Origin: Oscillospiraceae bacterium | GTDB lineage: Bacteria > Bacillota > Clostridia > Oscillospirales > UBA929 | Length of the DNA stretch: 64,000 nt | Direction of reading: 5' to 3' | Assembly: GCA_009782385.1 (NCBI GenBank) | Contig: WRJE01000002.1 | Coordinates: 2,663-66,662, forward strand | Shown here: positions 10,094 to 56,923 of the stretch, in pieces | Layout: each line of letters opens with the position of its first letter | Numbering within the stretch: the stretch's first letter is position 1 | Notes under the pieces: model-generated | Seen by the model: the letters and a program-made list of their open reading frames with translations, nothing else | Databases searched by the model: none | Told to the model about the DNA's origin: nothing | Translations under genes and position numbers: made by a program

Positions 10094-10099
10094 GAGGGA

Positions 10100-37684: not shown

Positions 37685-37697
37685 AGATTTTCAACTC

Positions 37698-38687: not shown

Positions 38688-38727
38688 ATTAAATCAATCC
38701 CGTTTCTTTATTTGATTTTGGAGACTA

Positions 38728-40977: not shown

Positions 40978-41147
40978 AAGACGACCCCCCTAAATATTGT
41001 GCTTTTTTCACATTATACCACCGCTTAAATATTTTGTAAACCGTTTCTTTCTCATTTTAGTAATTCACTCACCGCTCAATGCCAGTATCCCGCTCTATCT
41101 GACCTCCCGTCCGGTCGCCGGGCGTGTTACATTGCGCGAAGGTCGGT

Positions 41148-44100
41148 TTAGTCCGCTAAAAAGTCGTCAATGGCATTTTTTGCTTCATCGAAATCACTGT
41201 ACAGCAAGAGTTCGGCGAGCTTGCCCAACAGCTCTTTCTCCGCCGCCGTCCATACCTTTTCGCGCAGTTCCGCCAGAGCCGCATCGGCGGTATTGCCGTC
41301 ATATTCATCGCACGCATCTTTGATTACACGCAGTTTCTCTTTAAGCAACTCTGTATTTTCAGCGGTTTGCTCCCCGGCAGTTTCGTCTTCTTCCGGTGTA
41401 AGCCTGTCAATAACCTCTTGAAGCGATATAAGGAATCCGGGTGTGTCGGATTCCGCCAGCTTTAGATTTCCATCGCGCCCCGCAGCCTCCAACTTCTGAG
41501 CGACCGCCGACAAATCGGCTTCCCCGATGTTGGCGAGCGCGGATTTAATGCCGTGGACATTGATGACATAGGTTCGCATATCCTCTTCATAGCTGTTATT
41601 CTTTGTGATGGTGTCGAGAGTATTAAGTGCTTTGGCGGCATCGCGCACGAATATTTCCGCAAATCGGGGGTCGATTGACGATGTGCCGTTGGGGGAGGAC
41701 GGCGTGTCAGGGATGCCGTGCCCTGCGGCGTTACGCGCCGCTTCCAAAACTTCAGGCGGCTGTTTGTCGCGGATTAGTTTATTCAAGACAGCGTTGAGCT
41801 GGCGTACATCTATCGGTTTTGAGATGAAGTCTGTAAATCCGTTGGCTATGAATATGTCGGCTTGACCGACCACGGCGTTGGCGGTCAGCGCGACTATGGG
41901 GTGAGAGTAACCCATACCTCTGATGAGCTGTGTTGCTTCGATACCGTCCATTTTGGGCATCATGTGATCCATGAAGATTATATCGTATTCGTTTCCCGCT
42001 TTGACTTTATCGATTGCCTCATAACCGCTTGACGCGGTATCTATTGATAAGCCGTAAGGGGTCATAAGCCCTTGGGCGACATATACATTCGTCTCGACAT
42101 CGTCTACCACTAAAACCTTGCCGTATGGCATCGGCTCATGGGTGAATTGGAAATTCTTCATTTGCGACCTTCTGTCCATACGGAACTGTTGGAGGTTATC
42201 CGCCGTCTCCTTGCCAAGCACGTCTTCACCAACTCTGCCCTGCGACAGCCGCACAACGAACACCGACCCTTTGCCCGGCTCGCTCTCTATGATAATCTCG
42301 CCGTCCATCATGCGTATGAGGTTGCGCGTAATGCTCATTCCAAGTCCCGTACCCTCGGTTGTACGGTTGGCTTCCATGTTGAACCGCGCGTACTCATCGA
42401 ACAGCTTCTCTACCTGTTCCTTTGACATACCCTGCCCTGTATCGCTGACGCTGACGACCAGAGTAATCTCGCCGTCATTTTTGCCATCGTCAAAAGATAC
42501 CGAAAGTGTAACCTTGCCCTCGTCCGTATACTTGAAAGCGTTGGAGAGCAGATTGTTAAGGATTTGTTTAACGCGGAGTTCATCGCCCAGCATCTTAACG
42601 GGAAGGTTTTCATCTACATTAAGTAAAAACTCGATGGGCTTGCTGCCGATACGCATCATATTCAACTGAGCCGTATCGCCGATAAGTCCCGCCAATTCGT
42701 AGTTTGCCTCTATAAGCTCGAGTTTGCCCGCCTCAATCTTAGACAGGTCAAGTATATCGTTTATAATGCCGAGCAGCATATTACCGGAGGCGTGTATTTT
42801 TTCAAGTCCGACACGGATGTTTCCATCCATGTTTTCGCTTTGGAGCTGGATGTCAGTTATGCCGAGGATTGCGTTCATCGGAGTGCGTATCTCATGGCTC
42901 ATTGTGCTGAGGAACGCGCTCTTTGCCTTGTTCGCCTCGGTAGCTTCTTCAAGCGCATCGGTGAGTTTTTCATTCATTTTGTTGAGCTGTATGGACTGCT
43001 CATGGCGGATAATCGCGTTTACCAGCATCAAACCCGAGGATGTCAGCATATTAACCTCATCATCCGGAAAAACGCGCTCCTGTTTGCAGTCGTCAATGCA
43101 GACTATACCCCAAAACTCGCCGTGAGAGAACAGCGGGATTGTGAGTGTGGATTTCAAGCCGATGGATTCCATGGCTTCCCGGTCTTCGGTTTCAAGTTTT
43201 GAAACGGGACCGTTTATTGTGCCGCCATCGGCGAGCAGCCCTTGCCACGATTTGCTGTATTTAAGTCTTGTTCCTATCGGTATGGGATTGCTGTCAGATA
43301 CCGTGTTGTCCCAGTTATGTTTGAGGGTGTAATGGAGGATGCCGCCGATTGTTTCGTTCTGCCAGATTTGAACGCGGTCGGCGTTCATGTTGCCCCCTAT
43401 CAATTTCATGCACCCCATCAGTGATTCTTTGAAAATATCTTCACTAACGGGCGTGAGCAGCGCGGACGCGACCCTGTTCGTAATCCCAATCAGTTCGCTG
43501 TGATGCGCGGTTTTTCTCTCCATTTTTTTATGTTCGCGCGACAGCAATAGTCCCACAATGGAGATAATTATGCTTGCCACCAATGTTATAATAAAATCCG
43601 TGCGTTTAATACGCTCTATATCCGCAACGGTCTTGTCAATATCCTCGTAATAATTTCCGGTGCTGATATACCATCCGTAAGGCTCATATATCAAAGTGTA
43701 ACCTCTTTTTTGATATGAACCGCTTTCATCACCTGGCTTTCCGAAGTAAAAATCTGAAAATCCGCCGCCTTCATTCCCACGCGCGATGAAGTTGCGGATT
43801 AGATATGTACCTTCCTGATCCTGCACGTCCCAACGCATAGTACCCTCGTTCGCGGGGTTATAGTGAACCACGCAATATCCATCGGACATATCGGCCCAGA
43901 AGTAACCATCGTCTATTTTGTCAGGCGCGCTGTTGTAGCGCGTGTCACGAACCAGTTTTTTAGCGTTTTCTATCGCGGTTTCTTCCGAAATATCACCGTC
44001 AAGATACATCTTGCGGTTTATTTCCAAGGTGCTGATTAGCGTTTCGACCGCGATTCTTATGTTGTTGTCAAACCCGTCTTTAACATACATGACTTCCTGT

Positions 44101-44234
44101 TTTAGAGCCACGTTTAGGTTAATAAGCGACAGCGTTGAAAGGATAACGACAAAGACAATTATAATCGCTCCGATTGGAAGCCGCATTTTCCGCTGCATAA
44201 CATCACACCCACTCACTCTATTTGCGTTAATCAT
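41148..44234 (-). CDS. Hybrid sensor histidine kinase: sCache_2-like periplasmic domain, TM, GAF, HisKA, HATPase_c, REC, Hpt
   Basis: It has the Cache motif DDGYFWADMSDGYCVVH and the H-box SHEIRTPMNAILG. G-boxes are present, with REC (VLVVDD...FMDHMMPKMDG) and Hpt (HGIKSALANIG). An alternative start is MQRKMRLP at 44198. Confidence 0.85.
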   Translation of the reverse strand: MINANRVSGCDVMQRKMRLPIGAIIIVFVVILSTLSLINLNVALKQEVMYVKDGFDNNIRIAVETLISTLEINRKMYLDGDISEETAIENAKKLVRDTRYNSAPDKIDDGYFWADMSDGYCVVHYNPANEGTMRWDVQDQEGTYLIRNFIARGNEGGGFSDFYFGKPGDESGSYQKRGYTLIYEPYGWYISTGNYYEDIDKTVADIERIKRTDFIITLVASIIISIVGLLLSREHKKMERKTAHHSELIGITNRVASALLTPVSEDIFKESLMGCMKLIGGNMNADRVQIWQNETIGGILHYTLKHNWDNTVSDSNPIPIGTRLKYSKSWQGLLADGGTINGPVSKLETEDREAMESIGLKSTLTIPLFSHGEFWGIVCIDDCKQERVFPDDEVNMLTSSGLMLVNAIIRHEQSIQLNKMNEKLTDALEEATEANKAKSAFLSTMSHEIRTPMNAILGITDIQLQSENMDGNIRVGLEKIHASGNMLLGIINDILDLSKIEAGKLELIEANYELAGLIGDTAQLNMMRIGSKPIEFLLNVDENLPVKMLGDELRVKQILNNLLSNAFKYTDEGKVTLSVSFDDGKNDGEITLVVSVSDTGQGMSKEQVEKLFDEYARFNMEANRTTEGTGLGMSITRNLIRMMDGEIIIESEPGKGSVFVVRLSQGRVGEDVLGKETADNLQQFRMDRRSQMKNFQFTHEPMPYGKVLVVDDVETNVYVAQGLMTPYGLSIDTASSGYEAIDKVKAGNEYDIIFMDHMMPKMDGIEATQLIRGMGYSHPIVALTANAVVGQADIFIANGFTDFISKPIDVRQLNAVLNKLIRDKQPPEVLEAARNAAGHGIPDTPSSPNGTSSIDPRFAEIFVRDAAKALNTLDTITKNNSYEEDMRTYVINVHGIKSALANIGEADLSAVAQKLEAAGRDGNLKLAESDTPGFLISLQEVIDRLTPEEDETAGEQTAENTELLKEKLRVIKDACDEYDGNTADAALAELREKVWTAAEKELLGKLAELLLYSDFDEAKNAIDDFLAD

Positions 44235-47053: not shown

Positions 47054-47690
47054 TTTGTATCTGTTCCTTTTCTCCGGTTTCCGCCTGCTTCACAGCTTCC
47101 TCGCACGGTACTCCGGTACATTCATACTCCAAGTGTTCAAGTACCTCAATCGGCATCTCACCGCTCAACCACGCTTCTAGTTGGTCTGTCCGTAGCATAA
47201 CAGGCATCCTGTCATGTATATCTCTTATCTGCCCGGTAGGTTCTTTCGTAATAACAACAAACTCCCTGCCATCCTTACCGTCACGGTATAATCCAGCCAT
47301 AAAAAGCAAGTTACCATGCTTATCTTTGATTAAGTGCTTAATCTTCTTACCTTCATCTTTCCGCTCATAATAACCGGATGCCGGAACAACACAACGCCCT
47401 CTCCCTGCAAGATGCTTGAACATTGTCTTCTCTCTTATCGTCTCAGAGCGGGCATTGATAATCACACCTTTACCATCCCACTTCTCAAAACCGAACTGCC
47501 CAAGCTCAAACGCCAACTCGTCACCGTTACTGGTAACAATAGGCGCGTGATTGGTCGGGAACACCTCTTGTTGTTGTGTAACCTCGTAATTATCGAGTTC
47601 ATCTCTCGCTAATCTGAGAGATACGTTTCGTATTATCTCTCTAACCGCGATTATCTCTTCCTCTGTTAACACCGAATATCTTCCGCACAT
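47046..47690 (-). CDS. SOS-response-associated peptidase (SRAP/YedK family, abasic-site processing)
   Basis: It starts MCGRY (Cys2 nucleophile) with GGAGGTG 6 nt upstream. The family signature continues (NARSETI, PASGYYE). Confidence 0.8.
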   Translation of the reverse strand: MCGRYSVLTEEEIIAVREIIRNVSLRLARDELDNYEVTQQQEVFPTNHAPIVTSNGDELAFELGQFGFEKWDGKGVIINARSETIREKTMFKHLAGRGRCVVPASGYYERKDEGKKIKHLIKDKHGNLLFMAGLYRDGKDGREFVVITKEPTGQIRDIHDRMPVMLRTDQLEAWLSGEMPIEVLEHLEYECTGVPCEEAVKQAETGEKEQIQND

Positions 47691-47959
47691 TGCTGCCACC
47701 TCCCCAACGCACCCGCGCTTTCCACTTCCAGTTTACCGAATCTCTCGGTCAACGCTTTTAATCTGCTGCTTATATCTACCATAATAACATACTCATCGGT
47801 ATTAAATAAAGAGGTTTGTGTACTGTCGATGAGATTAGCAGCTCGAACTCCAACAGAACGCAATGTGTCCCGAATCGTCTCACAGCCCATCTCACACACT
47901 CTGCGATATATTTCTCGCTCAATGCTATTGAATTCTACCGCCTTTTCTGTTACGCTCAT
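47666..47959 (-). CDS. Hypothetical protein; the N-terminus resembles the start of UPF0236/ISLre2-type transposases (possible truncated remnant)
   Basis: The segment FNSIEREIYRRVCEMGCETIRDTLRSV recalls the conserved N-terminus of that family. The rest is unrelated and short. Confidence 0.3.
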   Translation of the reverse strand: MSVTEKAVEFNSIEREIYRRVCEMGCETIRDTLRSVGVRAANLIDSTQTSLFNTDEYVIMVDISSRLKALTERFGKLEVESAGALGRWQQCAEDIRC

Positions 47960-48080
47960 CTTGCATACGCCTTTCATAATGGTTTCTTGACAATCCCATT
48001 TTACTGATTTCCTGTATGCAAGGGAAATAGTTCTTACTGCTTCCCTCTTCTTTTTCCCCTCTTATTTTATACTAAGTTTA

Positions 48081-48118
48081 GGAGACGGCGGACTTTATCG
48101 TCCAGCGTCTCCTTTGTT
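48081..48118 (+). terminator. Orphan terminator-like hairpin GGAGACGgcggactttatcgtccagCGTCTCC plus TTTGTT
   Basis: Read directly. No plus-strand gene lies upstream. Confidence 0.35.
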
Positions 48119-48313
48119 ACCCTTTGTCAAGGGGGTAAATCACGCGCAGTCTGAGTATTAGAAAATTCTCTTGGGCGGTTCTTTATGCGGCAATGCGTTT
48201 TTGATATACATCATTTCACATATACATCAATTTTATCAAATATTACAATTCGATGGATATTTCGGGCATTCCTCCCATAACGACGATAAATCCCATAATT
48301 TTCAACGGGCATA

Positions 48314-48342
48314 TTGACACTTTCTTTATCATAGTGTACAAT
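48314..48342 (+). promoter_or_regulatory. Sigma-A-type promoter TTGACA-N17-TACAAT for the zinc-ribbon/lipoprotein cluster
   Basis: TTGACActttctttatcatagtgTACAAT lies 82 nt upstream of the first start codon. Confidence 0.6.
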
Positions 48343-48423
48343 GCAAAGTGTTAAGGAAAGACGTTTCAACAGCCTTGAGCATTGGCTAAAACAGCGATTA
48401 AAATTAAAGGCAGGAGGTATACT

Positions 48424-48903
48424 ATGGCATTTTGCAACGACTGTGGGGCGAATATCCCCGAAGGTAAAAAGTTTTGTACAGGGTGCGGTAAGCCTGTTAC
48501 CGGAGCAAAACCACCAGCGCAGGAATCGGCGCAGGCAGCAGCGGTACATACGCCTTCTCCCGTGGCGGCGGCGGTCGCCGCGCCGCCGATTGTCACACCA
48601 GTACAACCCGCGCCCATCACGCCCGTTCACGCGGACGAACAACCGCCGCTTCAAGGAAGTCCCTATGCCGTCATAAGCACAGGCGGTTTTTTCGGTTCGA
48701 TTATCCTTATGAATATTCCGATTATCGGCTGGCTAATCTGCATAATTTGGGCTTGCGGCGGCTGTAAAAACCGCAACAGGCGAAATTTTGCGCGCGCCAA
48801 TTTGATTTTTCTGGCAATTTGGGCGGTTCTCGCTTTGACCGGTTATTTGATGATGAATTGGATAGTACGCTTGATTGTGGATTATTTCCAACAGTTCATG
48901 TAA
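48424..48903 (+). CDS. Zinc-ribbon membrane protein (N-terminal zinc ribbon, Pro/Ala-rich linker, C-terminal TM domain)
   Basis: The start is MAFCNDCGANIPEGKKFCTGCGKPV after AGGAGG. The C-terminus has hydrophobic spans (FFGSIILMNIPIIGWLICIIWA, LIFLAIWAVLALTGYLM). Confidence 0.75.
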   Translation: MAFCNDCGANIPEGKKFCTGCGKPVTGAKPPAQESAQAAAVHTPSPVAAAVAAPPIVTPVQPAPITPVHADEQPPLQGSPYAVISTGGFFGSIILMNIPIIGWLICIIWACGGCKNRNRRNFARANLIFLAIWAVLALTGYLMMNWIVRLIVDYFQQFM

Positions 48904-48936
48904 CATCGGTTGCTATTTTGAAACGGAGGAAAGAAT

Positions 48937-49530
48937 ATGGCAATTCTTGACAAGGTGAGCGAATTTGCTAAAAACTTAGGTGACAAAACCGGAAGTGCGA
49001 TTGAAACATCAAATCTGAACTCAAAAATAAGCACCGAGCAAAACGCGATAAACGCAGTGATGACAAAAATCGGCGAGTTCTACTACAACAAGTATGCCGA
49101 AGAGAAAACCGCCGATGACGGCATAGCCGAATTTTGCAAGACAATAGACGGACACAACGCGGCAATAGCCGAAGCGAAAGCGGAAATTGAGCGCATCAAG
49201 GCTGCGGAAGCGGCGGCGGTTGCCGCTCCTGTCGCGGCAGGCGGCTTGGTTTGTACCGTTTGCGGCGCGGCAAACGCGGACGGCAGGAAATTCTGCTCCG
49301 AATGCGGCGGCAAATTAGAGGAGAAAAAGCCAACTGTTACGGCGGTTGGATTGGTCTGCTCCGCTTGCGGCGCGGCAAACGCGGCAGACAAAAAGTTTTG
49401 CGGCGATTGCGGGGGCAAATTGGAAGCCATTACGGAAACTAAAAAGCGCGTCTGCGCTTGCGGCGCGGAGGTCGCGCCCGGCGAGAAATTCTGCGGCGAT
49501 TGCGGCGCAAAATACGAGGAAGGAGAATAA
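48937..49530 (+). CDS. Soluble protein with an N-terminal helical domain and three tandem zinc ribbons
   Basis: The three modules are CTVCGAANADGRKFCSECGGKL, CSACGAANAADKKFCGDCGGKL and CACGAEVAPGEKFCGDCGAKY. Confidence 0.75.
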   Translation: MAILDKVSEFAKNLGDKTGSAIETSNLNSKISTEQNAINAVMTKIGEFYYNKYAEEKTADDGIAEFCKTIDGHNAAIAEAKAEIERIKAAEAAAVAAPVAAGGLVCTVCGAANADGRKFCSECGGKLEEKKPTVTAVGLVCSACGAANAADKKFCGDCGGKLEAITETKKRVCACGAEVAPGEKFCGDCGAKYEEGE

Positions 49531-49535
49531 TTATA

Positions 49536-50600
49536 ATGAAACCGAGGGAAGTCTATTCCAAAACAATGCCCTTTGTGTGGGCAAAACTGCTGTTGGGGCT
49601 TGCGACTATTGTCATATCCATAGTTCTTTTCGCAATTTTAATGGGTATTGCGTTTCTGTTCAAAAGCGGAGGAGCGGCCTTTTTCATGTTTATTATTTGG
49701 CTGGCCGCAACGGGAGCTGTGAATTTTATTATCAATCACTGGTTCGGCTATTTGGTAAAGGCCGGGCATATCGCGGTTATTACCGAAGCGGTCACCACCG
49801 GGCGTGTACCCGACAATCAGGTGGAATATGGCAAGCAAATGGTTAAAGACCGTTTTGCCACGTCCAATGTGTATTTTATGGTGGATAAACTGGTTTCCGC
49901 CGCGGTAAAACAGCTTCAAAACGGGTTTGAGAAAGTGGGAGGAGCGTTGGGCAACATCGTCCCCGGTATGAACGCGGTAGTGAGTATCGGTAAATTATTT
50001 ATCGGTATCGCTCTGGGGTACATAGACGAGTGTTGTTTGGGTTATACCTTCTTGAAAAAAGAGCAGGGTGCTTTTAAGAGCGCGGCGGACGGCGTTGTTA
50101 TATACGCTCAGAATTGGAAAAAACTATTGAAAGACGCTGCTAAAACCACAGCGACCGTTGTTGGTCTTATGATAGCGGCTACGCTGGTTTCACTGCTGTT
50201 TTTCGGACTTATCTTCCGTGTACTCGGTTTGAGCGGCATATGGGGCTTTGTGGCGTTCGCGTTCGCGTGTTTCATCGCGTGGCTGATAAAATCCGTTTTT
50301 ATAGACAGCTATATGATGGTCAAGATGATGGTTTCCTATATGCAGGAAGCACCGACAACCGTTATCACGTTTGACTTGTACGGCAAGCTGTGCGGTCTGT
50401 CAAGGAAATTCAAGGAACTGTTCAACAAGGGACAGCAGGAAGATCCGACACCGCAGCCCGCTTACGCGGCGGCAGGGGCGGCCGGAACGGTACAGTCATC
50501 TGCGTCCGCCGGAGACAAACCTGTATTCTGCGGTGAGTGTGGCGCGAAAAACAAGAGCGGAACAAGGTTCTGCGGCGAGTGCGGTAAGCCTATTACGTAA
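49536..50600 (+). CDS. Polytopic membrane protein with a C-terminal zinc ribbon
   Basis: The start is MKPREVYSK after GGAAGGAG. Several long hydrophobic spans are present. The C-terminus is FCGECGAKNKSGTRFCGECGKPI. Confidence 0.75.
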   Translation: MKPREVYSKTMPFVWAKLLLGLATIVISIVLFAILMGIAFLFKSGGAAFFMFIIWLAATGAVNFIINHWFGYLVKAGHIAVITEAVTTGRVPDNQVEYGKQMVKDRFATSNVYFMVDKLVSAAVKQLQNGFEKVGGALGNIVPGMNAVVSIGKLFIGIALGYIDECCLGYTFLKKEQGAFKSAADGVVIYAQNWKKLLKDAAKTTATVVGLMIAATLVSLLFFGLIFRVLGLSGIWGFVAFAFACFIAWLIKSVFIDSYMMVKMMVSYMQEAPTTVITFDLYGKLCGLSRKFKELFNKGQQEDPTPQPAYAAAGAAGTVQSSASAGDKPVFCGECGAKNKSGTRFCGECGKPIT

Positions 50601-50615
50601 ACAAGACCGCGAAAT

Positions 50616-50640
50616 TCGGGGCGGGGCAAATCTGCCCCGA
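50616..50640 (+). other. Intercistronic GC hairpin (GGGGCAaatcTGCCCC, alternative outer stem TCGGGG/CCCCGA) with no U-tract
   Basis: Read directly. It is homologous to the hairpin at 51334-51353. Confidence 0.6.
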
Positions 50641-50664
50641 TATAAAAGAAGGAGAGAAACTAAC

Positions 50665-51321
50665 ATGAAAACAACTGTTATTCAACCCCACAAGTCATCT
50701 TTTGGTGTAGATGCCAATATAATTTCGATGGTTATTTTTATCGCTATGGGAATCATCTTTTGGCTTCCGTTTGGTTACGGCGGATATTTAGGATGGGGGG
50801 CATGGGTGGCATGGATTGTGCCGCTTGTGTTTTTCTTTTTAGAAAAAGAGAGCAAATTTATTAAGTTTCAAGCCGGAACGGCTCTTGTCATCGGGGTTAT
50901 CGGCGCGATACTATACGGCGTGGTGCGAATCATAGCCTCGATACTGACACCCAGCTATAAGAATGTTACGATTTTCAATTATGAATCCGTCTGGCGCAGA
51001 GCGGAGGCCGCGTTGGGTTTTCTGAGAGCTACAACATTTATCGGTATTGCCGTTGTGTTGCTTGCCGCGTATCTCGCCTTCATGGCTTTTAGTTATAAAC
51101 AAGTCGAACTGCCCCTTATCGGGGCAATAGCGAGAAAAGCGAGCGGAAAACTTGAAAAAGTCAATATCAATATCAATCAGCAGACAGATAGCACTCAGGT
51201 AAATCAGACTGTTGCCGAAGAGACTGTCATTGAGAACAAACCTGTATTCTGCGGCGAGTGCGGCGCGAAAAACGAGAGCGGGAAGAAATTTTGCGGCAGC
51301 TGCGGCAAGCCTTTAGCATAA
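50665..51321 (+). CDS. Membrane protein (DUF4870-like N-terminal TM bundle) with a C-terminal zinc ribbon
   Basis: The start is MKTTVIQPH after AGGAGAG. It has four hydrophobic spans. The C-terminus is FCGECGAKNESGKKFCGSCGKPL. Confidence 0.7.
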   Translation: MKTTVIQPHKSSFGVDANIISMVIFIAMGIIFWLPFGYGGYLGWGAWVAWIVPLVFFFLEKESKFIKFQAGTALVIGVIGAILYGVVRIIASILTPSYKNVTIFNYESVWRRAEAALGFLRATTFIGIAVVLLAAYLAFMAFSYKQVELPLIGAIARKASGKLEKVNININQQTDSTQVNQTVAEETVIENKPVFCGECGAKNESGKKFCGSCGKPLA

Positions 51322-51333
51322 GCCGCTAACTTT

Positions 51334-51353
51334 GGGGCAGGGCAACCTGCCCC
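51334..51353 (+). other. Intercistronic hairpin GGGGCAGG-GCAA-CCTGCCCC (perfect 8-bp stem, GNRA loop), followed by an A-run rather than a U-run
   Basis: Read directly. Confidence 0.65.
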
Positions 51354-51378
51354 AAAAAATTAAAAAGGGGAGACAGAA

Positions 51379-52296
51379 ATGATAAGAAGATTCGCTGCAA
51401 TTTTTATTGCGGCTGTATTATTACTGAGCATAGCGGCGTGTACCCGTATAGAGGACGCGATTAAGGACGCGGTTTCCGATGGCGGCTCACAAACGGACAG
51501 CCTGCCAACGAGCAATCCGGCAACCGACAATTCGCCAACCAATCCGCCGGAAAGCAATTCCACGGCAGACAATGCGCTTGAACCCGATGGCAATAGTTCT
51601 GACGACCCGAGTGACGCTTTTGCCGCGCAGTCGGATGTAACATCAAATGATGACAACGGTAATGATGACGGTAATAACGATGGTAATGATGACGGTACAT
51701 CCGGTAATGCGGACGACATCGCTGTTTCCGGGACGACAGCCGCCCCTATCCGGTGGCTGATTGACGGTACTTACAGCTTTGACTATGTGATGATGATGTT
51801 TTTTGAAGGCTTTGACGATGGTATGGAAATGTCCGGCAGTATAGCGGTAGACGGCGATAAAATGGCAAGCACGAGCAGAATGAGCATAGAAGGTATAGCC
51901 GTCGAAGCGCGAGCCGTCCACAAAGACGGAAAAATATATGTGGTTGACAACGCCAACAAGTTTATCATGGAAGTGCCGCCCGAACTCGAGGATGATTACG
52001 CGGAGAGTATGCAAACGGATTACAGCGGAATTGTGAAAACCGGGGAAGGCACGGGCGAAATCAACGGAAGGACTTTACCCTATGAGGAGTATGCGGAAAA
52101 CGGAGGCTTACCCTCCCGCTTTTATCTGGACGGCGGCAGTCTCTACGCGATTGAAACCGCATCCGATGGAATTAAAATCATCATTCTTATCTCAAATATG
52201 TCCGGCAGCGTTCCGCCCGGGACGTTCGATTTGCCGTCCGGTTATATGACTATAGATTTGGGTGAGATAAACAGCATGATGGACTTTATGAATTGA
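51379..52296 (+). CDS. Lipoprotein, leader family member 1 (Asn/Asp-rich linker plus domain A)
   Basis: The signal peptide and lipobox read MIRRFAAIFIAAVLLLSIAAC. Domain A (IRWLIDGTYSFDY...DYSGIVKTGEGTGEINGRTLPYEEY...RFYLDGG) is paralogous to the N-terminal half of 52636-53967. Confidence 0.75.
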   Translation: MIRRFAAIFIAAVLLLSIAACTRIEDAIKDAVSDGGSQTDSLPTSNPATDNSPTNPPESNSTADNALEPDGNSSDDPSDAFAAQSDVTSNDDNGNDDGNNDGNDDGTSGNADDIAVSGTTAAPIRWLIDGTYSFDYVMMMFFEGFDDGMEMSGSIAVDGDKMASTSRMSIEGIAVEARAVHKDGKIYVVDNANKFIMEVPPELEDDYAESMQTDYSGIVKTGEGTGEINGRTLPYEEYAENGGLPSRFYLDGGSLYAIETASDGIKIIILISNMSGSVPPGTFDLPSGYMTIDLGEINSMMDFMN

Positions 52297-52309
52297 AAGG
52301 GGTTATAGT

Positions 52310-52612
52310 ATGCTTAAAAGTTTTGGAAGAGGTCTTGGTTTGGGTGCCGGAATGGGCATCGGCAGTGAGTTAGCAAAAGGCTTAATGAATAAACAGAAAA
52401 CAGCACCCGCCGCGCAGAGTGCCGCCGTACCCGCGCAGAGCGTTGGCGCGGGAATCGCGTGTGTATGCGGCGTAATAAATGAAGAGAACCGAAAGTTTTG
52501 CAGTGAGTGCGGAGCGAAGTTAGAAGAAGCAAAAGCAAACGTCTGCGGGTGCGGAGCGGAAATAGAAACAGGTAAAAAGTTTTGCGGCGCGTGCGGTAAG
52601 CCTGTCGCGTAA
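52310..52612 (+). CDS. Small protein with a Gly-rich N-terminus and two zinc ribbons
   Basis: The N-terminus is GRGLGLGAGMGIG. The two modules are CVCGVINEENRKFCSECGAKL and CGCGAEIETGKKFCGACGKPV. Confidence 0.7.
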   Translation: MLKSFGRGLGLGAGMGIGSELAKGLMNKQKTAPAAQSAAVPAQSVGAGIACVCGVINEENRKFCSECGAKLEEAKANVCGCGAEIETGKKFCGACGKPVA

Positions 52613-52635
52613 TGCTTTTAAGGGAGAAAGCGAAT

Positions 52636-53967
52636 ATGATAAGAAGATTTGCCGCCATTATTTTGGTATTGGCGTTGGCGTTGAGTTTTGCGGCGTGTAA
52701 TCGTATTGATGACACGGTTAAGGACGCGCTTTCCGGCGAGGGCGGGACGGCTTTAAGCGATACGCCGAATGAAACATCCAACACAACGCCCGATGTTGAC
52801 CCCGTTGATACCGATAAAGATATTATTCCCTCTATCCAATGGCTGCTGGACGGCACATACAGCTTCGACTTCACAAGGATAATTGAAGCGTCCGGCTTGT
52901 GGGTTGATAACAACGGCAGCTTGGCGGCGGACGGCGGGAATGTCGCCATAAGCGGCAAAACACAAGTTGAAGGTATAGTTACCGATGTACGGGTCATTTA
53001 CAAAGACGGCAAGTCATATTCGGTTGACGATGAACACAAAATCGTCATGGAATCATCGGACGGAAGCGATTTGATGGCATACATAATAACCGACTACAGC
53101 GGCATGGTAAAAACCGGAGAAGGTACGGGTGAATTTAACGGGATAACTTTACCTTATGAGGAATATTCCGGCGGCTATGCGGGTATAACCGCGCGATTTT
53201 ACCTTGATAACGGCGTTGTCTGCGGTATCGAAAACGATGGAAACGAACTCCTGCTGAGCGTAAGAAACATAACGAACAATATTCCCGCCGGGACATTCGA
53301 TTGGCCGGCGGATTATGCGATGGTAGACGACTTTGATTATTGGGAACTTTACGGCCCCGGCGGAAATACGTCTTGTGCGGTCGGTGATGTCATTCAGTTT
53401 GGCGGGTACGACTGGCGGGTGCTTGACGTGCGGGACGGCAAGGTGCTACTTTTAAGCGATAAAGTCTTGGAACTAAAGCAACTTCATCACGAGCGCAACG
53501 CAGTTATAACTTGGGCTAACAGCGATATTCGGCAGTATTTGAACGGAGAGTTTTACAATAGCATACCTACGAGCGAGAGCGCGAAAATAGCCGAAATAAC
53601 AATCGTGAACAACGACAATCCTTGGTATGGGACGAGCGGTGGCAGCGACACAAGTGACAAAATTTTCCTGTTAAGCCTTGATGAAGTCGTGGGATACTTT
53701 GGAGACAGCGGGAAGTTAACGCCGAGTAGACCTGCGGGTACGACCGGCATAAGCGACGAATATAACTCCGCGCGCGCTGCCGCGGATATAGGCGGCGACG
53801 CTCGCCCTTGGTGGCTTCGGTCGCCCGCCCAAGTCCAATCCAATGGCTGGACGACTTTCACCTACGTCGAACGAACTGGCGTTATCAATGTGAGCGGTAT
53901 CGGCAATTCTATTAACTCGCTTGGCGGTGTGCGCCCCGCTTTGTGGCTGAATTTGGAGGATTACTAA
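52636..53967 (+). CDS. Lipoprotein, leader family member 2 (domain A plus DUF6273-like domain)
   Basis: The leader reads MIRRFAAIILVLALALSFAAC. The C-terminal domain has GDVIQFGGYDWRVLDV, KIFLLSLDEV, WWLRSP and GVRPALWLNL. Confidence 0.75.
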   Translation: MIRRFAAIILVLALALSFAACNRIDDTVKDALSGEGGTALSDTPNETSNTTPDVDPVDTDKDIIPSIQWLLDGTYSFDFTRIIEASGLWVDNNGSLAADGGNVAISGKTQVEGIVTDVRVIYKDGKSYSVDDEHKIVMESSDGSDLMAYIITDYSGMVKTGEGTGEFNGITLPYEEYSGGYAGITARFYLDNGVVCGIENDGNELLLSVRNITNNIPAGTFDWPADYAMVDDFDYWELYGPGGNTSCAVGDVIQFGGYDWRVLDVRDGKVLLLSDKVLELKQLHHERNAVITWANSDIRQYLNGEFYNSIPTSESAKIAEITIVNNDNPWYGTSGGSDTSDKIFLLSLDEVVGYFGDSGKLTPSRPAGTTGISDEYNSARAAADIGGDARPWWLRSPAQVQSNGWTTFTYVERTGVINVSGIGNSINSLGGVRPALWLNLEDY

Positions 53968-54717
53968 ATGATAAAAAGATTTACGGCAATTATTTTGGCG
54001 GTGCTGGTGTTGGGTTTATCGGCGTGTAACAGTATTGAGGACGCAGTCAAGGACGCGGTTTCAGACAGCGGCTTGCAGACGGATAACCCGCAAGCAAGCG
54101 AGCCGCCAAGCGAAACGCCTAACCCCGGGACAGGCTTTGCAGCGGTAGGCAATGTCATACAATTTGCCGGGTACGATTGGCGGGTACTTGACGTACAGGA
54201 TGGCAAGGCTCTGATTTTGAGCGATAAGGTTTTGGAACAAAGGAAGTTTCACACCGAAAATAACGCAGACCTGACATGGGCGGACAGCAGTATCCGTCAG
54301 TATTTGAACGGCGAGTTTTTTGACAGCTTACCCGCAGACGAAAGAATCAAAATCACCGAAACAAGAGTGGAGAATAACGACAACCTGCGGTACGAAACAA
54401 GCGGCGGCAGCGATACAAACGATAAAATATTCCTGTTAAGCCTTGAGGAGGTTGTGCGGTACTTCGGCGACAGCGGGCAGTGGGAAAACAGCCCCGAAAG
54501 CGCGTCCACCATAAACGATGAATATAATTCAGCGCGTACTGCCGCGACATTAACCAACAGCCAAAGTGCTTGGTGGCTTCGGACACCGGGTCAAAGAATG
54601 TCAAACAGAATGAGTTTCGTCCATATCCCCGTTGACGGTACTATCATCGTTGGCGGCTATTCAACAGGGAACGTTATAGGCGTTCGCCCCGCTCTGTGGT
54701 TGGATTTGGAGGATTAA
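53968..54717 (+). CDS. Lipoprotein, leader family member 3 (DUF6273-like domain only)
   Basis: The leader reads MIKRFTAIILAVLVLGLSAC. The domain has GNVIQFAGYDWRVLDV, KIFLLSLEEV, WWLRTP and GVRPALWLDL. The start directly follows the previous stop. Confidence 0.75.
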   Translation: MIKRFTAIILAVLVLGLSACNSIEDAVKDAVSDSGLQTDNPQASEPPSETPNPGTGFAAVGNVIQFAGYDWRVLDVQDGKALILSDKVLEQRKFHTENNADLTWADSSIRQYLNGEFFDSLPADERIKITETRVENNDNLRYETSGGSDTNDKIFLLSLEEVVRYFGDSGQWENSPESASTINDEYNSARTAATLTNSQSAWWLRTPGQRMSNRMSFVHIPVDGTIIVGGYSTGNVIGVRPALWLDLED

Positions 54718-54720
54718 TAA

Positions 54721-55569
54721 ATGATAAAAAGATTTGCGGCAATTATTTTGGCGGCGGTACTATTACTGAGCGTAACGGCGTGTAATCGTATTGAGAACGC
54801 GGTCAAGGACGCGATTGGCGATAGCGGCACAACCTCACGCGCAACGAACACGCCAAGTGGCGGAAACAACGGCGCAAGTACGCCGGGCGGCGGCGCAGGG
54901 GAAAACCTGTCATCTACGGGAGGGAGTACCACAAACGATGGTAATATGTCGTCCTTTGACGATTCAAGATACCGCTTTTGGGATGTCTTTGACGAAGTTC
55001 GGGATAAGGTGTACGCCGCTCTGGACGACCCCGACAATAACGTGGAAGAAAGTTATTATTACAGCATATTATTAACGTCTTTCTCGTCAATGAATTTGAT
55101 GTTTATTCCCATTTACTATATTGATAACGATGAATATTTTGAAAACGGGGGGAAAGACGGCTGGACAAACATAGAGAGGGAGCAAAAAGGGAATTTGCGT
55201 ACCGTCAGTTTTATAAAGCCGGATAGCAGCGGGACAAACGCATATACAGCAGAATATGACGGCACTTTGGATTCCCTGAAAATCACCTTTACGTTCAATG
55301 ATTTCAATATGTTTTGGGAATATGTACGGGTTGGCGACAGCTATGTGTCACAAATGTATCAGGGTTCACCGGAAAGCGAACGGGGAGTAGTTTATAAGGT
55401 GTTTTTCGATGAACAGAATATTACATTCATGAATGCTTCTGACTCCCCAATGCCCGCATCCATATATCAAAATAAAGGGCTATCAAGTTCATTCGTGCAA
55501 GTACCGACAACAATGTTCAGTACATATATTTCTTATATGAACGGGACATTGGAAATAACGAGCAATTAA
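54721..55569 (+). CDS. Lipoprotein, leader family member 4 (unrelated C-terminal domain)
   Basis: The leader reads MIKRFAAIILAAVLLLSVTAC. A Gly/Ser/Thr linker is followed by about 200 aa with no recognised motif. Confidence 0.7.
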   Translation: MIKRFAAIILAAVLLLSVTACNRIENAVKDAIGDSGTTSRATNTPSGGNNGASTPGGGAGENLSSTGGSTTNDGNMSSFDDSRYRFWDVFDEVRDKVYAALDDPDNNVEESYYYSILLTSFSSMNLMFIPIYYIDNDEYFENGGKDGWTNIEREQKGNLRTVSFIKPDSSGTNAYTAEYDGTLDSLKITFTFNDFNMFWEYVRVGDSYVSQMYQGSPESERGVVYKVFFDEQNITFMNASDSPMPASIYQNKGLSSSFVQVPTTMFSTYISYMNGTLEITSN

Positions 55570-55612
55570 CTAACCTTGTTAAAATGGAGTGTACCCATCC
55601 TTAAAACATAAA

Positions 55613-55652
55613 AATCGGGGTTGTCATAGGCTGACTTCCCCGATTTTCTTTT
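55613..55652 (+). terminator. Rho-independent terminator closing the cluster
   Basis: The sequence is AATCGGGGttgtcataggctgacttCCCCGATTTTCTTTT. Confidence 0.65.
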
Positions 55653-55702
55653 ACGCTTTGCCGCTTCCGCTTTCGTTGGCTCGGCGGCTTTCCGATTGGG
55701 AA

Positions 55703-56746
55703 TCACATTTGTTTTGTCGTTTCTCTGTTAATCAACTCCGGCAGAGTTGTGTATGTTTGTACTTGCAATGTCGGGTTTTTAATTTTTCGCATCAGCGACT
55801 TAACCGATTGTACGCCAAGGTCATATAAATCAATATTTACAACTGTTGGCGTTGGAGTAATAATCTGAGAATAAGGATAATCGTCAATCATGATAACTCC
55901 CATATCCGATGGTACGGATATTTTTTTATCTTCCAACACTTTGCACACGCCGACAGCGATAAGATTGCTTCCGCATACAATAGCGTCAGGGAGATTTTTC
56001 ATGTTTAACAGTGCAATCACAGCTTTATTAATCTCATTAATATCGTGATTTGTTCGGAATAAACACTGCTCGTCAATTTCTGTGCCGCGACTATTTAGAA
56101 ATGATTGCATACCGCGAAGATGACTTGAGGCCATAACATCTTCTTCTCTTCCGCAAATACACGAAATTCGGCTGTATCCGTATTGGAAAAGATGCTGTGC
56201 GGCTATTTCGCCTACCAAAACATGGTTGACATCTATCCAACTTACTCTGTGTTCAAAATCAGGTTTTCCGATAACTATATGAGGGAACTCTTTCTTCACG
56301 AAAAAATCGGCGGTGCTTATGTTTAACGGTTCGCCCTGTATAATGATACCGTCCGAGCTTTTTTGCAAAATAATTTTCTTCGCTTTTTCGCCGTCTCTCT
56401 CTTCATGGCTTATATCAACTAAAGTGAGAGTGTAGCCAATGCGCTCCAGTTCATTTTGTGCGCCGCAAATGATTTCAAACATATGCGGGTTACCGTAAAC
56501 CTTTCCTTTATGTAACCTTGCGAGAAACGCGATGTTTTTTGAGGAAGCGCGTGACAAATTAGCCGCAAGCTGGTTTGGCACATACTCCAAACGCTTCATA
56601 ACCGCGTGAACATTATTTATTGTCGTCTGCGATATCGTAGGCGACTTATTTATTACCTTGCTGACTGTAGCCGTAGACACCCCTGCTTCCCGTGCGACAT
56701 CTTTTATCGTAACCGCCAATTTCAGACCACCTCGCTTAAATGCCAT
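55703..56746 (-). CDS. LacI family transcriptional regulator
   Basis: The HTH reads TIKDVAREAGVSTATVSKVIN, followed by a periplasmic-binding-fold body. The true start may be TTG at 56719, which has GAGGTGG upstream. Confidence 0.85.
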   Translation of the reverse strand: MAFKRGGLKLAVTIKDVAREAGVSTATVSKVINKSPTISQTTINNVHAVMKRLEYVPNQLAANLSRASSKNIAFLARLHKGKVYGNPHMFEIICGAQNELERIGYTLTLVDISHEERDGEKAKKIILQKSSDGIIIQGEPLNISTADFFVKKEFPHIVIGKPDFEHRVSWIDVNHVLVGEIAAQHLFQYGYSRISCICGREEDVMASSHLRGMQSFLNSRGTEIDEQCLFRTNHDINEINKAVIALLNMKNLPDAIVCGSNLIAVGVCKVLEDKKISVPSDMGVIMIDDYPYSQIITPTPTVVNIDLYDLGVQSVKSLMRKIKNPTLQVQTYTTLPELINRETTKQM

Positions 56747-56803
56747 TGTGTTTTTTTATTATAGCATAAAACGGAAAGCAAGTAAAGGCGGTTTACTGCA
56801 AAA

Positions 56804-56817
56804 TAAGTTAACCGATT
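56804..56817. promoter_or_regulatory. 14-nt word TAAGTTAACCGATT, copy 1 (candidate operator)
   Basis: It is identical to 56924-56937 and lies 36 nt upstream of the -35 box. Confidence 0.4.
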
Positions 56818-56852
56818 ACCTAAATAATTATTATCAAATTCCATATTATATA

Positions 56853-56881
56853 TTGACAAGACAATGCAATAGTGGTATTAT
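56853..56881 (+). promoter_or_regulatory. Sigma-A-type promoter TTGACA-N17-TATTAT for the maltodextrin operon
   Basis: The sequence is TTGACAagacaatgcaatagtggTATTAT. Confidence 0.55.
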
Positions 56882-56923
56882 AAAAACATAGCCATAAAAA
56901 TAACACTTCATTCTAAGTTAACC

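Follow-up and report, generated by a model that had tools for sequence, protein, structure and literature searches.

A two-module operon in an Oscillospiraceae bacterium joins an instance of a widespread zinc-ribbon membrane-protein neighbourhood to a local lipoprotein array

Short four-cysteine zinc ribbons (ZnR) serve for docking at the cytoplasmic end of membrane proteins in the ZnR/ZnR-GYF switch modules, where the Zn ribbon of Myxococcus GltJ binds MglB and that of Caulobacter ZitP binds PopZ, and where ZnR and GYF_2 are alternative terminal modules (PMC11135422). Another described system, the pspA-ydjGHI operon of Bacillus subtilis, mixes Zn-ribbon integral membrane proteins with soluble proteins at the inner membrane face. 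YdjG has two Zn ribbons and a TM segment, while YdjI combines a band-7 domain with a C-terminal Zn ribbon (PMC11237479). YdjG, YdjH and YdjI are all required for the placement of PspA at the membrane (PMC8581546, PMC11237479), and the membrane partners of the system are needed to localise its soluble ones (PMC8581546). Among lipoproteins and their carriers, LolA, LolB and mycobacterial LprG, which works with the Rv1410 transporter, share an open beta-barrel fold. DUF6273 is a C-type-lectin-like domain of phage receptor-binding proteins and a DGR target in phages (PMC10743442, PMC11792537), with the 'tentaclins' and Faecalibacterium prophage targets as examples. Here we analysed a gene cluster that resembles each of these systems in part.

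The cluster lies in a 64-kb window (64,000 nucleotides of one Oscillospiraceae contig, analysed as a whole). Gene calling gave nine co-directional ORFs on the + strand between 48424 and 55569, with intergenic gaps of 33, 5, 64, 57, 13, 23, 0 and 3 nt in order from p1 to p9. Independent calls on a near-identical metagenome contig, L090, yielded products of equal length (159, 197, 354, 218, 305, 100 and 443 aa). The first-pass annotation had described nine tightly packed genes between a promoter and a hairpin/T-tract terminator, and this layout was confirmed by the gene calls, by a promoter that matches 11 of 12 consensus positions and by the RNA fold of the 96-nt stretch 55570-55665, which includes the terminator hairpin (MFE -24.3 kcal/mol, z = -3.0). 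The nine-gene operon is real and consists of two joined modules, with p1, p2, p3, p4 and p6 in module 1 and p5, p7, p8 and p9 in module 2. Its features are as follows.

48314..48342, + strand: sigma-70-type promoter, TTGACA-N17-TACAAT, the best site of the region
48424..48903, + strand: p1, N-terminal Zn ribbon, Pro/Ala-rich linker and C-terminal two-segment hydrophobic domain (p1_TM family)
48937..49530, + strand: p2, soluble protein with N-terminal amphipathic helix, helical region and three Zn ribbons
49536..50600, + strand: p3, core polytopic membrane protein with four long TM helices, a helical insert and a C-terminal Zn ribbon
50665..51321, + strand: p4, four-TM membrane protein with C-terminal Zn ribbon, probable remote DUF4870/MamF_MmsF relative
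51379..52296, + strand: p5, lipoprotein (lipobox present) with low-complexity linker and domain A (predicted LolA/LprG-like fold)
52310..52612, + strand: p6, small soluble protein, Gly-rich at the N-terminus, with two Zn ribbons whose first knuckle is C-x-C
52636..53967, + strand: p7, lipoprotein with domain A and DUF6273 (C-type-lectin-like); start backed by paralogue alignment and the L090 gene call
53968..54717, + strand: p8, lipoprotein with DUF6273
54721..55569, + strand: p9, orphan lipoprotein with the shared leader
55611..55652, + strand: intrinsic terminator, 10-bp G+C-containing stem with inner helix (hairpin 55611-55647), then CUUUU
53926..54001, + strand, second copy 54679-54754: junction cassette that links the end of a DUF6273 gene to the following lipoprotein leader, 91% identity over 76 nt

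Zn ribbons were assigned to Zn_Ribbon_1/DZR (PF13240, PF12773) when four Cys, arranged in two knuckles, lay within about 20 residues and the score exceeded the Pfam gathering threshold. By this measure the five module 1 proteins carry eight predicted ribbons, one each in p1, p3 and p4, two in p6 and three in p2, with Zn_Ribbon_1 scores of 26.3 (p1), 49.3 (p2), 25.6 (p3), 26.9 (p4) and 43.5 bits (p6) against a cut-off of 25. The p2 protein reached 64 bits with DZR and showed three Zn_Ribbon_1 stretches, and the p6 score covers two. An earlier count of eight copies of C-x2-C-G-x(6,8)-[KR]-F-C-x2-C-G in five proteins was therefore right as to copies and proteins, but the strict pattern fits only five of them; in three of the eight ribbons (the third of p2 and both of p6) the first knuckle is C-x-C-G. 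When the whole window was translated in six frames, all eight motif matches fell within the cluster; shuffling the region 200 times produced no Zn-ribbon motif match.

The p3 family comprises four-TM proteins of about 300 aa. Its homologues number more than 1,400 and form 636 clusters at 50% identity, and it is 50-80% identical between phyla. Its core matches no Pfam model and has no sequence-level match among PDB chains. The AF2 model of p3 (mean pLDDT 79.7) found its best Foldseek matches in CTL1 and PNS1 (SLC44/choline-transporter-like) at E = 0.07 and 0.25; these are weak, with TM of 0.31-0.42 and rmsd of 12-13 Å, and the modelled fold appears to have no convincing structural relative. Conserved residues of the family are T10, H78, D164, D/E185, K195, K252, D257 and S289. 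The polar ones in or next to TM helices (H78, K195, K252 and D257) suggest that p3 is the working part, possibly a transporter- or channel-like protein or a sensor of membrane state.

Predicted topology places the Zn ribbons of p3 and p4 in the cytoplasm, as had been proposed for the membrane-tethered ribbons, and leaves both proteins with nothing outside the membrane but short loops, from a few residues to about 15. With almost no extracytoplasmic surface on p3 and p4, there is no evident way for them to contact the lipoproteins, and the idea of a trans-envelope assembly, raised by the first-pass annotation, has no structural basis in these two proteins. Two hydrophobic segments of p1 (residues 86-114 and 121-152) are separated by a KNRNRR loop. 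Residues 3-20 of p2 have a hydrophobic moment (muH) of 0.50; this helix resembles those of ApoC-I and antimicrobial peptides at sub-threshold level, and the N-terminal domain (p2_N) has no Pfam or PDB relative. Furthermore, profile-profile alignment (hhalign) of the p4 family with ZnR-DUF4870 proteins encoded beside p3 elsewhere gave a probability of 95% (E = 4e-8, 87 columns). Those neighbouring proteins fall short of the cut-off for the Pfam DUF4870/MamF_MmsF model (PF09685), with E = 6e-5 to 3e-3, and p4 itself does not match it at E < 0.1. By this profile comparison p4 is probably a remote DUF4870/MamF_MmsF relative. To our knowledge, the only members of that family with a described function are magnetosome proteins, which have no bearing on this cluster.

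We then compared 80 p3-centred loci from Bacillota, Bacteroidales, Treponema, Desulfovibrio and Synergistaceae, a set that is phylogenetically non-independent and includes about 15 near-identical Oscillospiraceae contigs. In these loci the density of Zn-ribbon ORFs was 3.5 per 10 kb within 1.5 kb of p3 and 0.21 per 10 kb at 5-10 kb, an approximately 17-fold difference, and that of lipoprotein ORFs was 2.5 per 10 kb near p3 versus 0.5 far from it. At least one partner Zn-ribbon family occurred within 5 kb in 22 of the 30 well-flanked loci (Bacillota, Bacteroidales, Treponema and Desulfovibrio/Adiutrix), always co-directional with p3; in the other eight no recognised partner was found. Homologues of p1_TM lay within 5 kb of p3 in 18 of the 30, all co-directional. 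Homologues of p2_N adjoin p3 in 18 of 80 loci (blastp), and a soluble Zn-ribbon gene is the immediate upstream neighbour of p3 in 23 of 70. Orthologues of p4 are present in L001, L003 and L005, and p6_N-like genes lie directly 3' of p3 in L001, L081 and L085. Chance juxtaposition of Zn-ribbon genes, an explanation that had been left open, is ruled out by this co-directional co-occurrence of the p1, p2, p3, p4 and p6 families near p3 homologues in at least four phyla. The gene neighbourhood that module 1 exemplifies is widespread yet uncharacterised, and it occurs in gut anaerobes of several phyla. In haloarchaea and Rhodobacterales, distant homologues of p3 have neither a Zn ribbon nor Zn-ribbon neighbours.

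Gene order within the neighbourhood varies (p1-p3-p6-p2-p4 in L001, p4..p1-domA-p2-p3 in L003, ZnR-ZnR-p3 in Parabacteroides), which favours selection on proximity over simple shared ancestry. A competing explanation holds that the genes are co-located yet functionally independent: an island of small membrane proteins and lipoproteins, in which ribbon and leader cassettes were duplicated and shuffled locally so that neighbours came to look alike, would share a promoter and form no complex or pathway. DNA-level ribbon repeats inside the cluster fit this explanation (p3 versus p4, 80% identity over 86 nt; p2 ribbons, 76-77%), as do leader and junction cassettes of 63-91% identity and a neighbourhood composition that is fluid even between close relatives. 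The ribbon also changes position, being N-terminal in the p4 of L003 and in some p3-family members, and in other p3-family members it is replaced by GYF_2, another cytoplasmic adaptor domain. On the other hand, each family keeps its own ribbon signature across phyla (e.g., GLVCSACG..AAD[KR]KFC.ECGGKL in p2 of the window, L001 and L003), so the ribbons were inherited with their genes and not homogenised locally. Moreover, the same four or five distinct families re-associate in distant phyla in differing order; they never depart from a common direction, and most lie next to one another or at a distance of a few kb. We consider functional independence somewhat unlikely.

We tentatively favour, at a little below an even chance, a two-module operon that encodes a membrane complex held together at the cytoplasmic face by Zn ribbons, together with co-expressed surface binding proteins. 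The small integral membrane proteins (p3 core, p1-type and DUF4870-like) and the soluble helical p2 and p6 share the same short cytoplasmic ribbon and would assemble around p3, with p2-p3 as the centre and the amphipathic helix of p2 keeping that soluble protein on the membrane. Like those of GltJ and ZitP, and as has been proposed for the ribbons of YdjG and YdjI, the ribbons may act as protein-protein docking tags. The likeness to GltJ and ZitP is that a membrane protein ends on its cytoplasmic side in a short four-Cys ribbon, and that ZnR and GYF_2 replace one another, as they also do in the p3 family. Unlike in that class, several separate proteins carry the ribbon here, motility and polarity genes are absent, and the ligands MglB and PopZ, which are specific to other lineages, are not encoded in the cluster.

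The resemblance to pspA-ydjGHI raises the possibility of a membrane-stress or repair module in which Zn-ribbon membrane proteins anchor p2 and p6 to damaged membrane, as YdjG/YdjH do for YdjI/PspA. The amphipathic N-terminal helix of p2, followed by a helical region, would suit such a role, and Zn ribbons have been tied to Psp contexts (PMC11237479). In one locus, L082, a YdjG/H/I-like triad (Zn-ribbon protein, TPM and Band_7_1) abuts the p3 cluster, and the C-terminus of its Band_7_1 protein aligns to the C-terminal Zn-ribbon region of a p2-like protein; such an adjacency, however, occurred in just this 1 of about 90 loci. The nine proteins contain no PspA, PspC, LiaF/Toastrack, band-7, TPM or NTF2-like domain, and p2_N does not match PspA_IM30. 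The membrane proteins of the cluster belong to other families (p3 core, p1_TM and DUF4870-like), and five proteins carry the ribbon. We hold a Psp-like function to be quite improbable.

The four lipoproteins of module 2 have a common lipobox leader, MI[RK]RF.AI...AC, and a conserved xIEDAVKDAVSD after the Cys. Their leader sequences form a 113-nt DNA repeat of 63-81% identity, and the repeated junction cassette marks a tandem array of lipoprotein genes. Between p5 and p7, domain A is 41% identical. The p7 and p8 proteins match DUF6273 (PF19789) end to end, over profile positions 1-171 of 172, with 115.8 and 122.4 bits against a cut-off of 23.5, and p9 has no Pfam, NCBIfam or PADLOC match and a single homologue (70% identity) among 5.8 billion proteins. 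The passengers first read from the sequence (domain A, domain A with DUF6273, DUF6273, and an unassigned one) were thereby borne out. The AF2 model of p5 domain A (pLDDT 85.2, 11-12 strands) is an unclosed antiparallel beta-barrel with a helical plug, the fold of LolA, LolB and LprG. Foldseek retrieved these three at E down to 1e-7 (TM 0.45-0.53); its 69 PDB matches at E <= 1e-3 had a top 50 that was almost entirely LolA, LprG, LprF, LolB, ependymin-related or VioE (TM 0.33-0.55). The model thus gives domain A a LolA/LprG-like fold and marks it as a putative lipid binder, although sequence identity to these proteins is only 9-16%. With this fold, the C-type-lectin-like DUF6273 and the remote affinity of p4 in hand, the earlier statement that no component has a known function proved too strong.

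Module 2 does not share the wide distribution of module 1. Neither DUF6273 nor p9 was found beside p3 in any of the 80 loci, and domain A, the only part of module 2 that recurs there, accompanies p3 in approximately 10%. The full nine-gene layout recurs in L090 alone; in relatives whose p3 is about 80% or about 73% identical, the available sequence shows only p1-p3-p6 or p3-p6. A metagenome scan returned just five p8-related loci, none with Zn-ribbon genes on the available sequence, although three of these contigs are shorter than 2 kb. Related lipoprotein arrays likewise have no Zn-ribbon genes on the available sequence, both contigs being short or cut near the array. The nine genes, first viewed as one system, are not a single conserved unit, and the four lipoprotein genes are a local add-on. 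Within the two-module reading, the array would be a strain-level tandem set that displays lipid-binding (LolA/LprG-fold) and glycan-binding (DUF6273) domains on the surface. Its predicted co-transcription with module 1 here, and the recurrence of LolA-fold lipoproteins by p3 elsewhere, point to membrane or envelope homeostasis, or lipid/glycolipid handling, as the likeliest role. The two-module reading also draws support from a reciprocal search, which set out from domain A and returned to a Zn-ribbon cluster (L087).

A more specific proposal is envelope lipid or lipoprotein trafficking in the manner of LprG-Rv1410 or Lol, in which p3 would move a lipid or glycolipid across the membrane or out of it, p5 and p7 would receive it and DUF6273 would bind wall glycan. 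The match of domain A to LolA, LolB and LprG, the last solved with PIM and triacylglyceride, speaks for it (E 1e-7 to 1e-4, probability 1.0). So does gene position: like LprG, domain A is a lipoprotein domain encoded beside a polytopic membrane protein, and domain-A genes immediately adjoin p3 in Treponema, Eubacteriales, Synergistaceae and other loci. The best structural matches of p3, though weak, are choline-transporter-like proteins and the TM domains of ABC exporters, but they are non-significant (E >= 0.07, TM <= 0.42). The operon encodes no ATPase or other energising component; no ABC ATPase or permease domain was detected in the nine proteins, and neither LolCDE nor an MFS partner is present. 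Furthermore, the association of domain A with p3 is confined to a minority of loci, the lipoproteins that flank p3 come from several sequence-unrelated families, and domain-A arrays occur without p3 on available sequence. Trafficking of this kind is distinctly unlikely in our view.

DUF6273 and the surroundings of the cluster bear on a last alternative, an anti-phage defence or conflict system, or a DGR-diversified surface system, on a mobile island. The SRAP, DUF2786/DUF7168 and HARE-HTH neighbours are phage- or plasmid-flavoured, G+C dips to 40-44% just upstream of the cluster, DUF6273 is a phage DGR target (PMC10743442, PMC11792537), and the divergence between p7 and p8 peaks in the C-terminal part, where DGR variable regions map (PMC11792537). 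However, a DGR combines a reverse transcriptase with a template repeat that shares about 80-90% identity with the variable region. The 64-kb window contains no reverse transcriptase motif in its ORFs, no template repeat and no second copy of the C-terminal regions of p7 and p8, and DUF6273 is found here on bacterial lipoproteins rather than phage tail or head proteins. Defence, as initially suggested, received no backing from PADLOC-DB v2 (zero matches at E <= 0.1 for the nine proteins) or from 50,697 phage records, which held no p3 homologue. No nuclease, NTPase, protease or other effector domain was found in the nine proteins, and the conservation of p3 across phyla is unusually high for an arms-race gene. 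We regard this alternative as highly improbable. The neighbours of the cluster, among which is also an Asp-protease-like protein, are plausibly mobile-element debris.

The cluster comprised nine plus-strand genes, p1 to p9, running from 48424 to 55569 in the ORF listing, with intergenic gaps of 33, 5, 64, 57, 13, 23, 0, and 3 nt from p1 to p9. An independent gene call on L090, a near-identical metagenome contig (ENA ERZ27257320), returned identical products of 159, 197, 354, 218, 305, 100, and 443 aa, followed by a partial gene. The nine genes were bounded by the following signals:
48314-48342, plus strand: promoter-like site TTGACA-N17-TACAAT, agreeing at 11 of 12 positions and the top site of the region
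55611-55647, plus strand: terminator hairpin after p9, then CUUUU (surrounding 96 nt: -24.3 kcal/mol, z = -3.0)
No convincing terminator was found on the plus strand between the nine genes. A riboswitch or leader-RNA reading was rejected, as Rfam returned no match at E ≤ 0.1 over 47600-56900. The nine-gene cluster of the first-pass annotation was thus confirmed, with one correction to its ribbons (below).

Upstream, the minus strand encodes an SRAP peptidase, a DUF2786/DUF7168 protein, an aspartyl-protease-like protein, and a HARE-HTH protein (40-44% G+C). This block may plausibly derive from a mobile element, and the SRAP junction is also present in L090. The 335 nt directly 5' of the promoter (47978-48313) are non-coding and contain a strong inverted repeat (ggagacgcggac…gtccagcgtctcc, about 48081-48113), which may terminate the divergent minus-strand genes or mark the edge of an element. 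Downstream, the cluster is followed by genes for a LacI regulator and an amylase. Farther away, at 31772-44234 on the minus strand, are in a row multi-domain hybrid histidine kinases (1,970 and 1,028 aa), a methyl-accepting chemotaxis protein, and a response regulator, with functions assigned by eye from the translations; this stretch is unrelated to the Zn-ribbon cluster.

Pfam assigned Zn_Ribbon_1/DZR copies to p1 (one), p2 (three), p3 (one), p4 (one), and p6 (two), and searches of the nine proteins against NCBIfam and PADLOC added nothing beyond Pfam. In the six-frame translation of the 64-kb window, all eight occurrences of the ribbon motif fell within the cluster, and the motif did not occur in 200 shuffles of the region. 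The claim of one short module in eight copies therefore held for the copy number and for confinement to the cluster, but only five of the eight fitted the strict pattern proposed for it, C-x2-C-G-x(6,8)-[KR]-F-C-x2-C-G. A first knuckle of C-x-C-G, not C-x2-C-G, was found in three ribbons:
49453-49506, plus strand: third ribbon of p2
52460-52513, plus strand: ribbon of p6
52544-52597, plus strand: ribbon of p6
The variant is kept at the matching position of p2-like proteins in other genomes (e.g., RICACGAEV in locus L083). Ribbon signatures were family-specific and kept across phyla, so the ribbons were inherited with their genes, without local homogenisation.

Among the Zn-ribbon proteins, p3 belongs to a large family. 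A word-indexed search found more than 1,400 homologues, the best 120 of them all 59-81% identical, and an exhaustive search with the 310-aa core gave 636 clusters at 50% identity. Pfam and NCBIfam contained no model that matched this core, and HMM searches with two profiles found nothing among PDB sequences. A known family for the core was also rejected when 20 members were searched against Pfam at E ≤ 10, yielding only Zn-ribbon models and scattered noise (FA_desaturase, TraG_N). Many members of about 300 aa are ribbon-free, and others have the ribbon at the N-terminus or GYF_2 instead of a ribbon; the longer homologues offered no informative fusion, only Zn ribbons, GYF_2, and one collagen-like repeat. 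A scan of 185,579 representative genomes, one per species, detected at least 542 stretches encoding p3 relatives, of which the best 80 belonged to Clostridia, Treponema, Bacteroidales, Desulfovibrio/Adiutrix, and Synergistaceae. Remote, ribbon-free relatives (about 29% identity) were present in a haloarchaeon and on Rhodobacterales megaplasmids.

The AF2 model of p3 was all-helical (pLDDT 79.7, pTM 0.70), with one pair of long TM helices towards the N-terminus and another towards the C-terminus; the pairs are separated by a helical insert (residues ~70-200) with a hydrophobic helix in it, and a disordered linker leads to the ribbon. According to hydropathy and charge counts, the N-terminus, the insert, and the C-terminal ribbon are predicted to be cytoplasmic. 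T10, H78, D164, D/E185, K195, K252, D257, and S289 were kept across 48 diverse homologues; the vicinal Cys pair in IDECC was kept in close relatives only. The best Foldseek matches of the model in the PDB were CTL1 and Pns1 (E = 0.07-0.25, TM 0.31-0.42), a weak resemblance, which is a lead and not a result.

Gene contexts were taken from homologues of p3. When ribbon-free domain queries were compared by blastp with the 80 p3 loci, which are phylogenetically non-independent and include about 15 near-identical Oscillospiraceae contigs, the membrane part of p1 was found in 32, the N-terminal part of p2 in 18, domain A (the domain common to lipoproteins p5 and p7) in 6, p4 in 3, and the N-terminal part of p6 in 1. 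Locus maps revealed further recurrent partners, namely p2b, a second soluble family whose members have a Gly-rich N-terminus along with a coiled coil and two ribbons, as well as Zn-ribbon-DUF4870, Zn-ribbon-DUF805, and Zn-ribbon-UPF0259 proteins and a 254-aa multi-Cys family. Across the 80 loci, the density of Zn-ribbon ORFs depended on distance: it was 3.5 per 10 kb in the innermost bin (up to 1.5 kb from p3) and 0.93, 0.50, and 0.21 per 10 kb in the outer bins, a roughly 17-fold enrichment near p3. That of lipoprotein ORFs went from 2.5 to 0.5 per 10 kb with growing distance. Thirty loci had flanks of 3 kb or more on both sides of p3; 22 of these had one or more partner families within 5 kb of it, and all partner genes in this subset were co-directional with p3; the immediate upstream neighbour of p3 was a soluble Zn-ribbon gene in 23/70 loci. 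The neighbourhood check proposed in the first-pass annotation thus bore out the recurrence of Zn-ribbon genes beside p3 elsewhere, in several phyla.

Gene order varied: p1-p3-p6-p2-p4 in a Defluviitaleaceae locus (L001), p4..p1-domainA-p2-p3 in Treponema (L003), and ZnR-ZnR(DUF4870)-p3 in L045, L056, and Parabacteroides distasonis. The main rival explanation is that these genes are co-located but do not work together. It is favoured by the shifting make-up of the neighbourhoods and by the cassette-like DNA repeats. Against it stands the re-association of the families across phyla, in variable order and with every partner gene co-directional. The data support an association of several Zn-ribbon-tagged membrane and soluble proteins around p3 that is real, conserved, and undescribed.

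Among these partners, p4 is probably a distant relative of DUF4870 (95% probability by hhalign) and is predicted to have four TM helices with both ends inside. For p1, a simple N-in, two-TM model is at odds with the KNRNRR loop. The N-terminal helix of p2 is amphipathic (muH 0.50), with sub-threshold likeness to ApoC-I and antimicrobial-peptide helices; its N-terminal domain had no relative in Pfam or PDB and could not be linked to p2b (hhalign probability just 18%), nor was the N-terminal part of p6 related to that of p2b. A 94-aa Cys-rich protein (…DCPYADGEDKTCGTC…), not of p2 type, lies directly upstream of p3 in 13 Oscillospiraceae/Acutalibacteraceae loci (L022-L036 and relatives), and 22 loci have, near p3, a LuxR-type regulator whose N-terminal domain has 10 TM segments.

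The four lipoproteins, p5, p7, p8, and p9, have in common the leader and the first ~15 mature residues, and the leader is visible in the DNA as a 113-nt repeat (63-81% identity). A 76-nt junction, made up of the final ~40 nt of a DUF6273 gene and the opening ~36 nt of the lipoprotein leader that follows, occurs in two copies, 91% identical, at 53926-54001 and 54679-54754. It looks like the cassette through which a tandem lipoprotein array recombines or duplicates. The passenger domains between its copies differ. The 'xxDAVKDAV' helix after the lipobox was dismissed as a general docking signal, being confined to close relatives (3/835 ORFs in the loci). Pfam identified DUF6273 in p7 and p8 and gave no match for p5 or p9. 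DUF6273 has been described as a C-type-lectin-like domain and a DGR target in gut phages (PMC10743442, PMC11792537). Over the first 120 residues of the domain, the p7 and p8 copies share about 62% identity, which falls to about 30% from WWLR.P to GVRPALWL, the part that forms the DGR variable region in phage DUF6273 proteins:
53700-53925, plus strand: divergent DUF6273 segment of p7
54465-54678, plus strand: divergent DUF6273 segment of p8
A DGR was nevertheless rejected, the window having neither a reverse transcriptase motif nor a template repeat.

Domain A, 41% identical between p5 and p7, forms a small family of 11 proteins in a word-indexed search, with a divergent branch, domA2, in 7 loci (hhalign probability 100%). 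Its AF2 model (pLDDT 85.2) matched the folds of LolA, LprG, LprF, LolB, and ependymin-related proteins (E down to 1.3e-7, TM about 0.5). Genes for domain A adjoin p3 in Treponema, Eubacteriales, Synergistaceae, and several Clostridia loci, and a search begun at domain A led to another Zn-ribbon cluster (L087). Two further domain-A arrays, in L089 (64-1062) and L091 (398-1090), were without Zn-ribbon genes on the sequence available, both contigs being short or cut near the array; the first lies beside a GGGtGRT-family protein (PF14057) and the second beside a Cys-rich protein. By hhalign, p9 and the lipoprotein families flanking p3 elsewhere (B/D, C, and E) were unrelated to domain A, and p9 had one homologue in 5.8 billion proteins. 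Relatives with p3 about 80% or about 73% identical had just p1-p3-p6-like or p3-p6-like genes on the sequence available, so the nine-gene layout is specific to this strain or species. The first-pass interpretation, in which all nine genes form one system, was thus supported in part: the association recurs for the core around p3, but not for the strain-specific lipoprotein array as a whole (DUF6273 and p9 in 0 of the 80 loci by blastp). This array is an add-on, and its sole recurrent link to the core is the LolA-fold member.

The trans-envelope, defence, and DGR readings received no positive evidence. For the trans-envelope assembly suggested at first pass, the external loops of p3 and p4 measure a few to about 15 residues. 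The suggested defence role fared no better: PADLOC gave 0 matches, PHROGs was matched through Zn ribbons and DUF6273 only, and no p3 homologue occurred in phage records. A Psp-like reading rests mainly on the single locus L082, the only one where a YdjG/H/I-like triad abuts a p3 cluster; there, the C-terminus of a Band_7_1 protein aligns with the C-terminal Zn-ribbon region of a p2-like protein. This triad (9098-12214, minus strand, beside the p3 gene at 8001-9080) consists of a YdjH-like TPM protein, a 410-aa multi-Zn-ribbon protein, and the Band_7_1 protein, back to back with a DUF805 / ZnR-DUF4870 / ZnR-UPF0259 / p2 / p3 row.

Ribbons act as adaptors elsewhere: that of GltJ binds MglB and that of ZitP binds PopZ, and membrane receptors combine ZnR and GYF as switch modules at their termini (PMC11135422). 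In B. subtilis, placement of PspA on the membrane requires YdjG (Zn ribbons and a TM segment), YdjH, and YdjI (band-7 and a C-terminal ribbon) (PMC8581546, PMC11237479). The closest known kind to our cluster is a Zn-ribbon-adaptor membrane assembly, with that principle alone in common; the cluster belongs to none of the named systems. In the best-supported mechanism, the Zn-ribbon proteins would assemble at the cytoplasmic face of the membrane, and the ribbons would serve as docking tags in a p3-centred assembly; we infer complex formation, ribbon ligands, and physiological role alike. The most economical guess at a role is membrane or lipid homeostasis, in view of the polar residues conserved in p3 and of the LolA-fold neighbour that recurs beside it. 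A wider reading, which we put forward tentatively and consider rather doubtful, is that p1-p4 and p6 form a so far unrecognised membrane module that has spread horizontally among anaerobic gut bacteria, reaching five or more major groups in four or five phyla and at least 542 of the 185,579 representative genomes. At its centre would be a new family of four-TM proteins of ~300 aa. The common cytoplasmic ribbon would then be an assembly code joining unrelated small membrane proteins and soluble helical adaptors in one complex, which would act with LolA/LprG-fold surface lipoproteins in lipid/envelope homeostasis.

Small membrane proteins fused to short Zn ribbons are very common in Bacillota and Bacteroidota genomes and, to our knowledge, nearly all are annotated just as 'zinc ribbon domain-containing protein'. 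If the ribbon were a common docking tag by which a defined membrane complex assembles, a single rule would supply many hypothetical proteins with a testable function, among them the Pfam-less 636-cluster p3 family. It would also extend the adaptor principle of GltJ, ZitP, and YdjG/YdjI to monoderm anaerobes, and could hint at a role for LolA/LprG-fold lipoproteins in them. If the genes were merely co-located, it would still be of use to have separated the conserved core of the apparent nine-gene 'system' from its strain-specific lipoprotein array. The new conserved family and its neighbourhood are testable because they are present in cultured gut bacteria, the p3 family occurring in Parabacteroides distasonis, Bacteroides timonensis, and Anaerovorax odorimutans (DSM 5092). 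Fusibacter ferrireducens is another cultured carrier. In P. distasonis, which is cultured and genetically tractable, two ZnR proteins (171 and 195 aa) and a p3 homologue (351 aa, WP_005857108.1) are encoded in a row (L096, NZ_OY725834.1, 4840-7056), all three annotated merely as zinc-ribbon domain-containing proteins.
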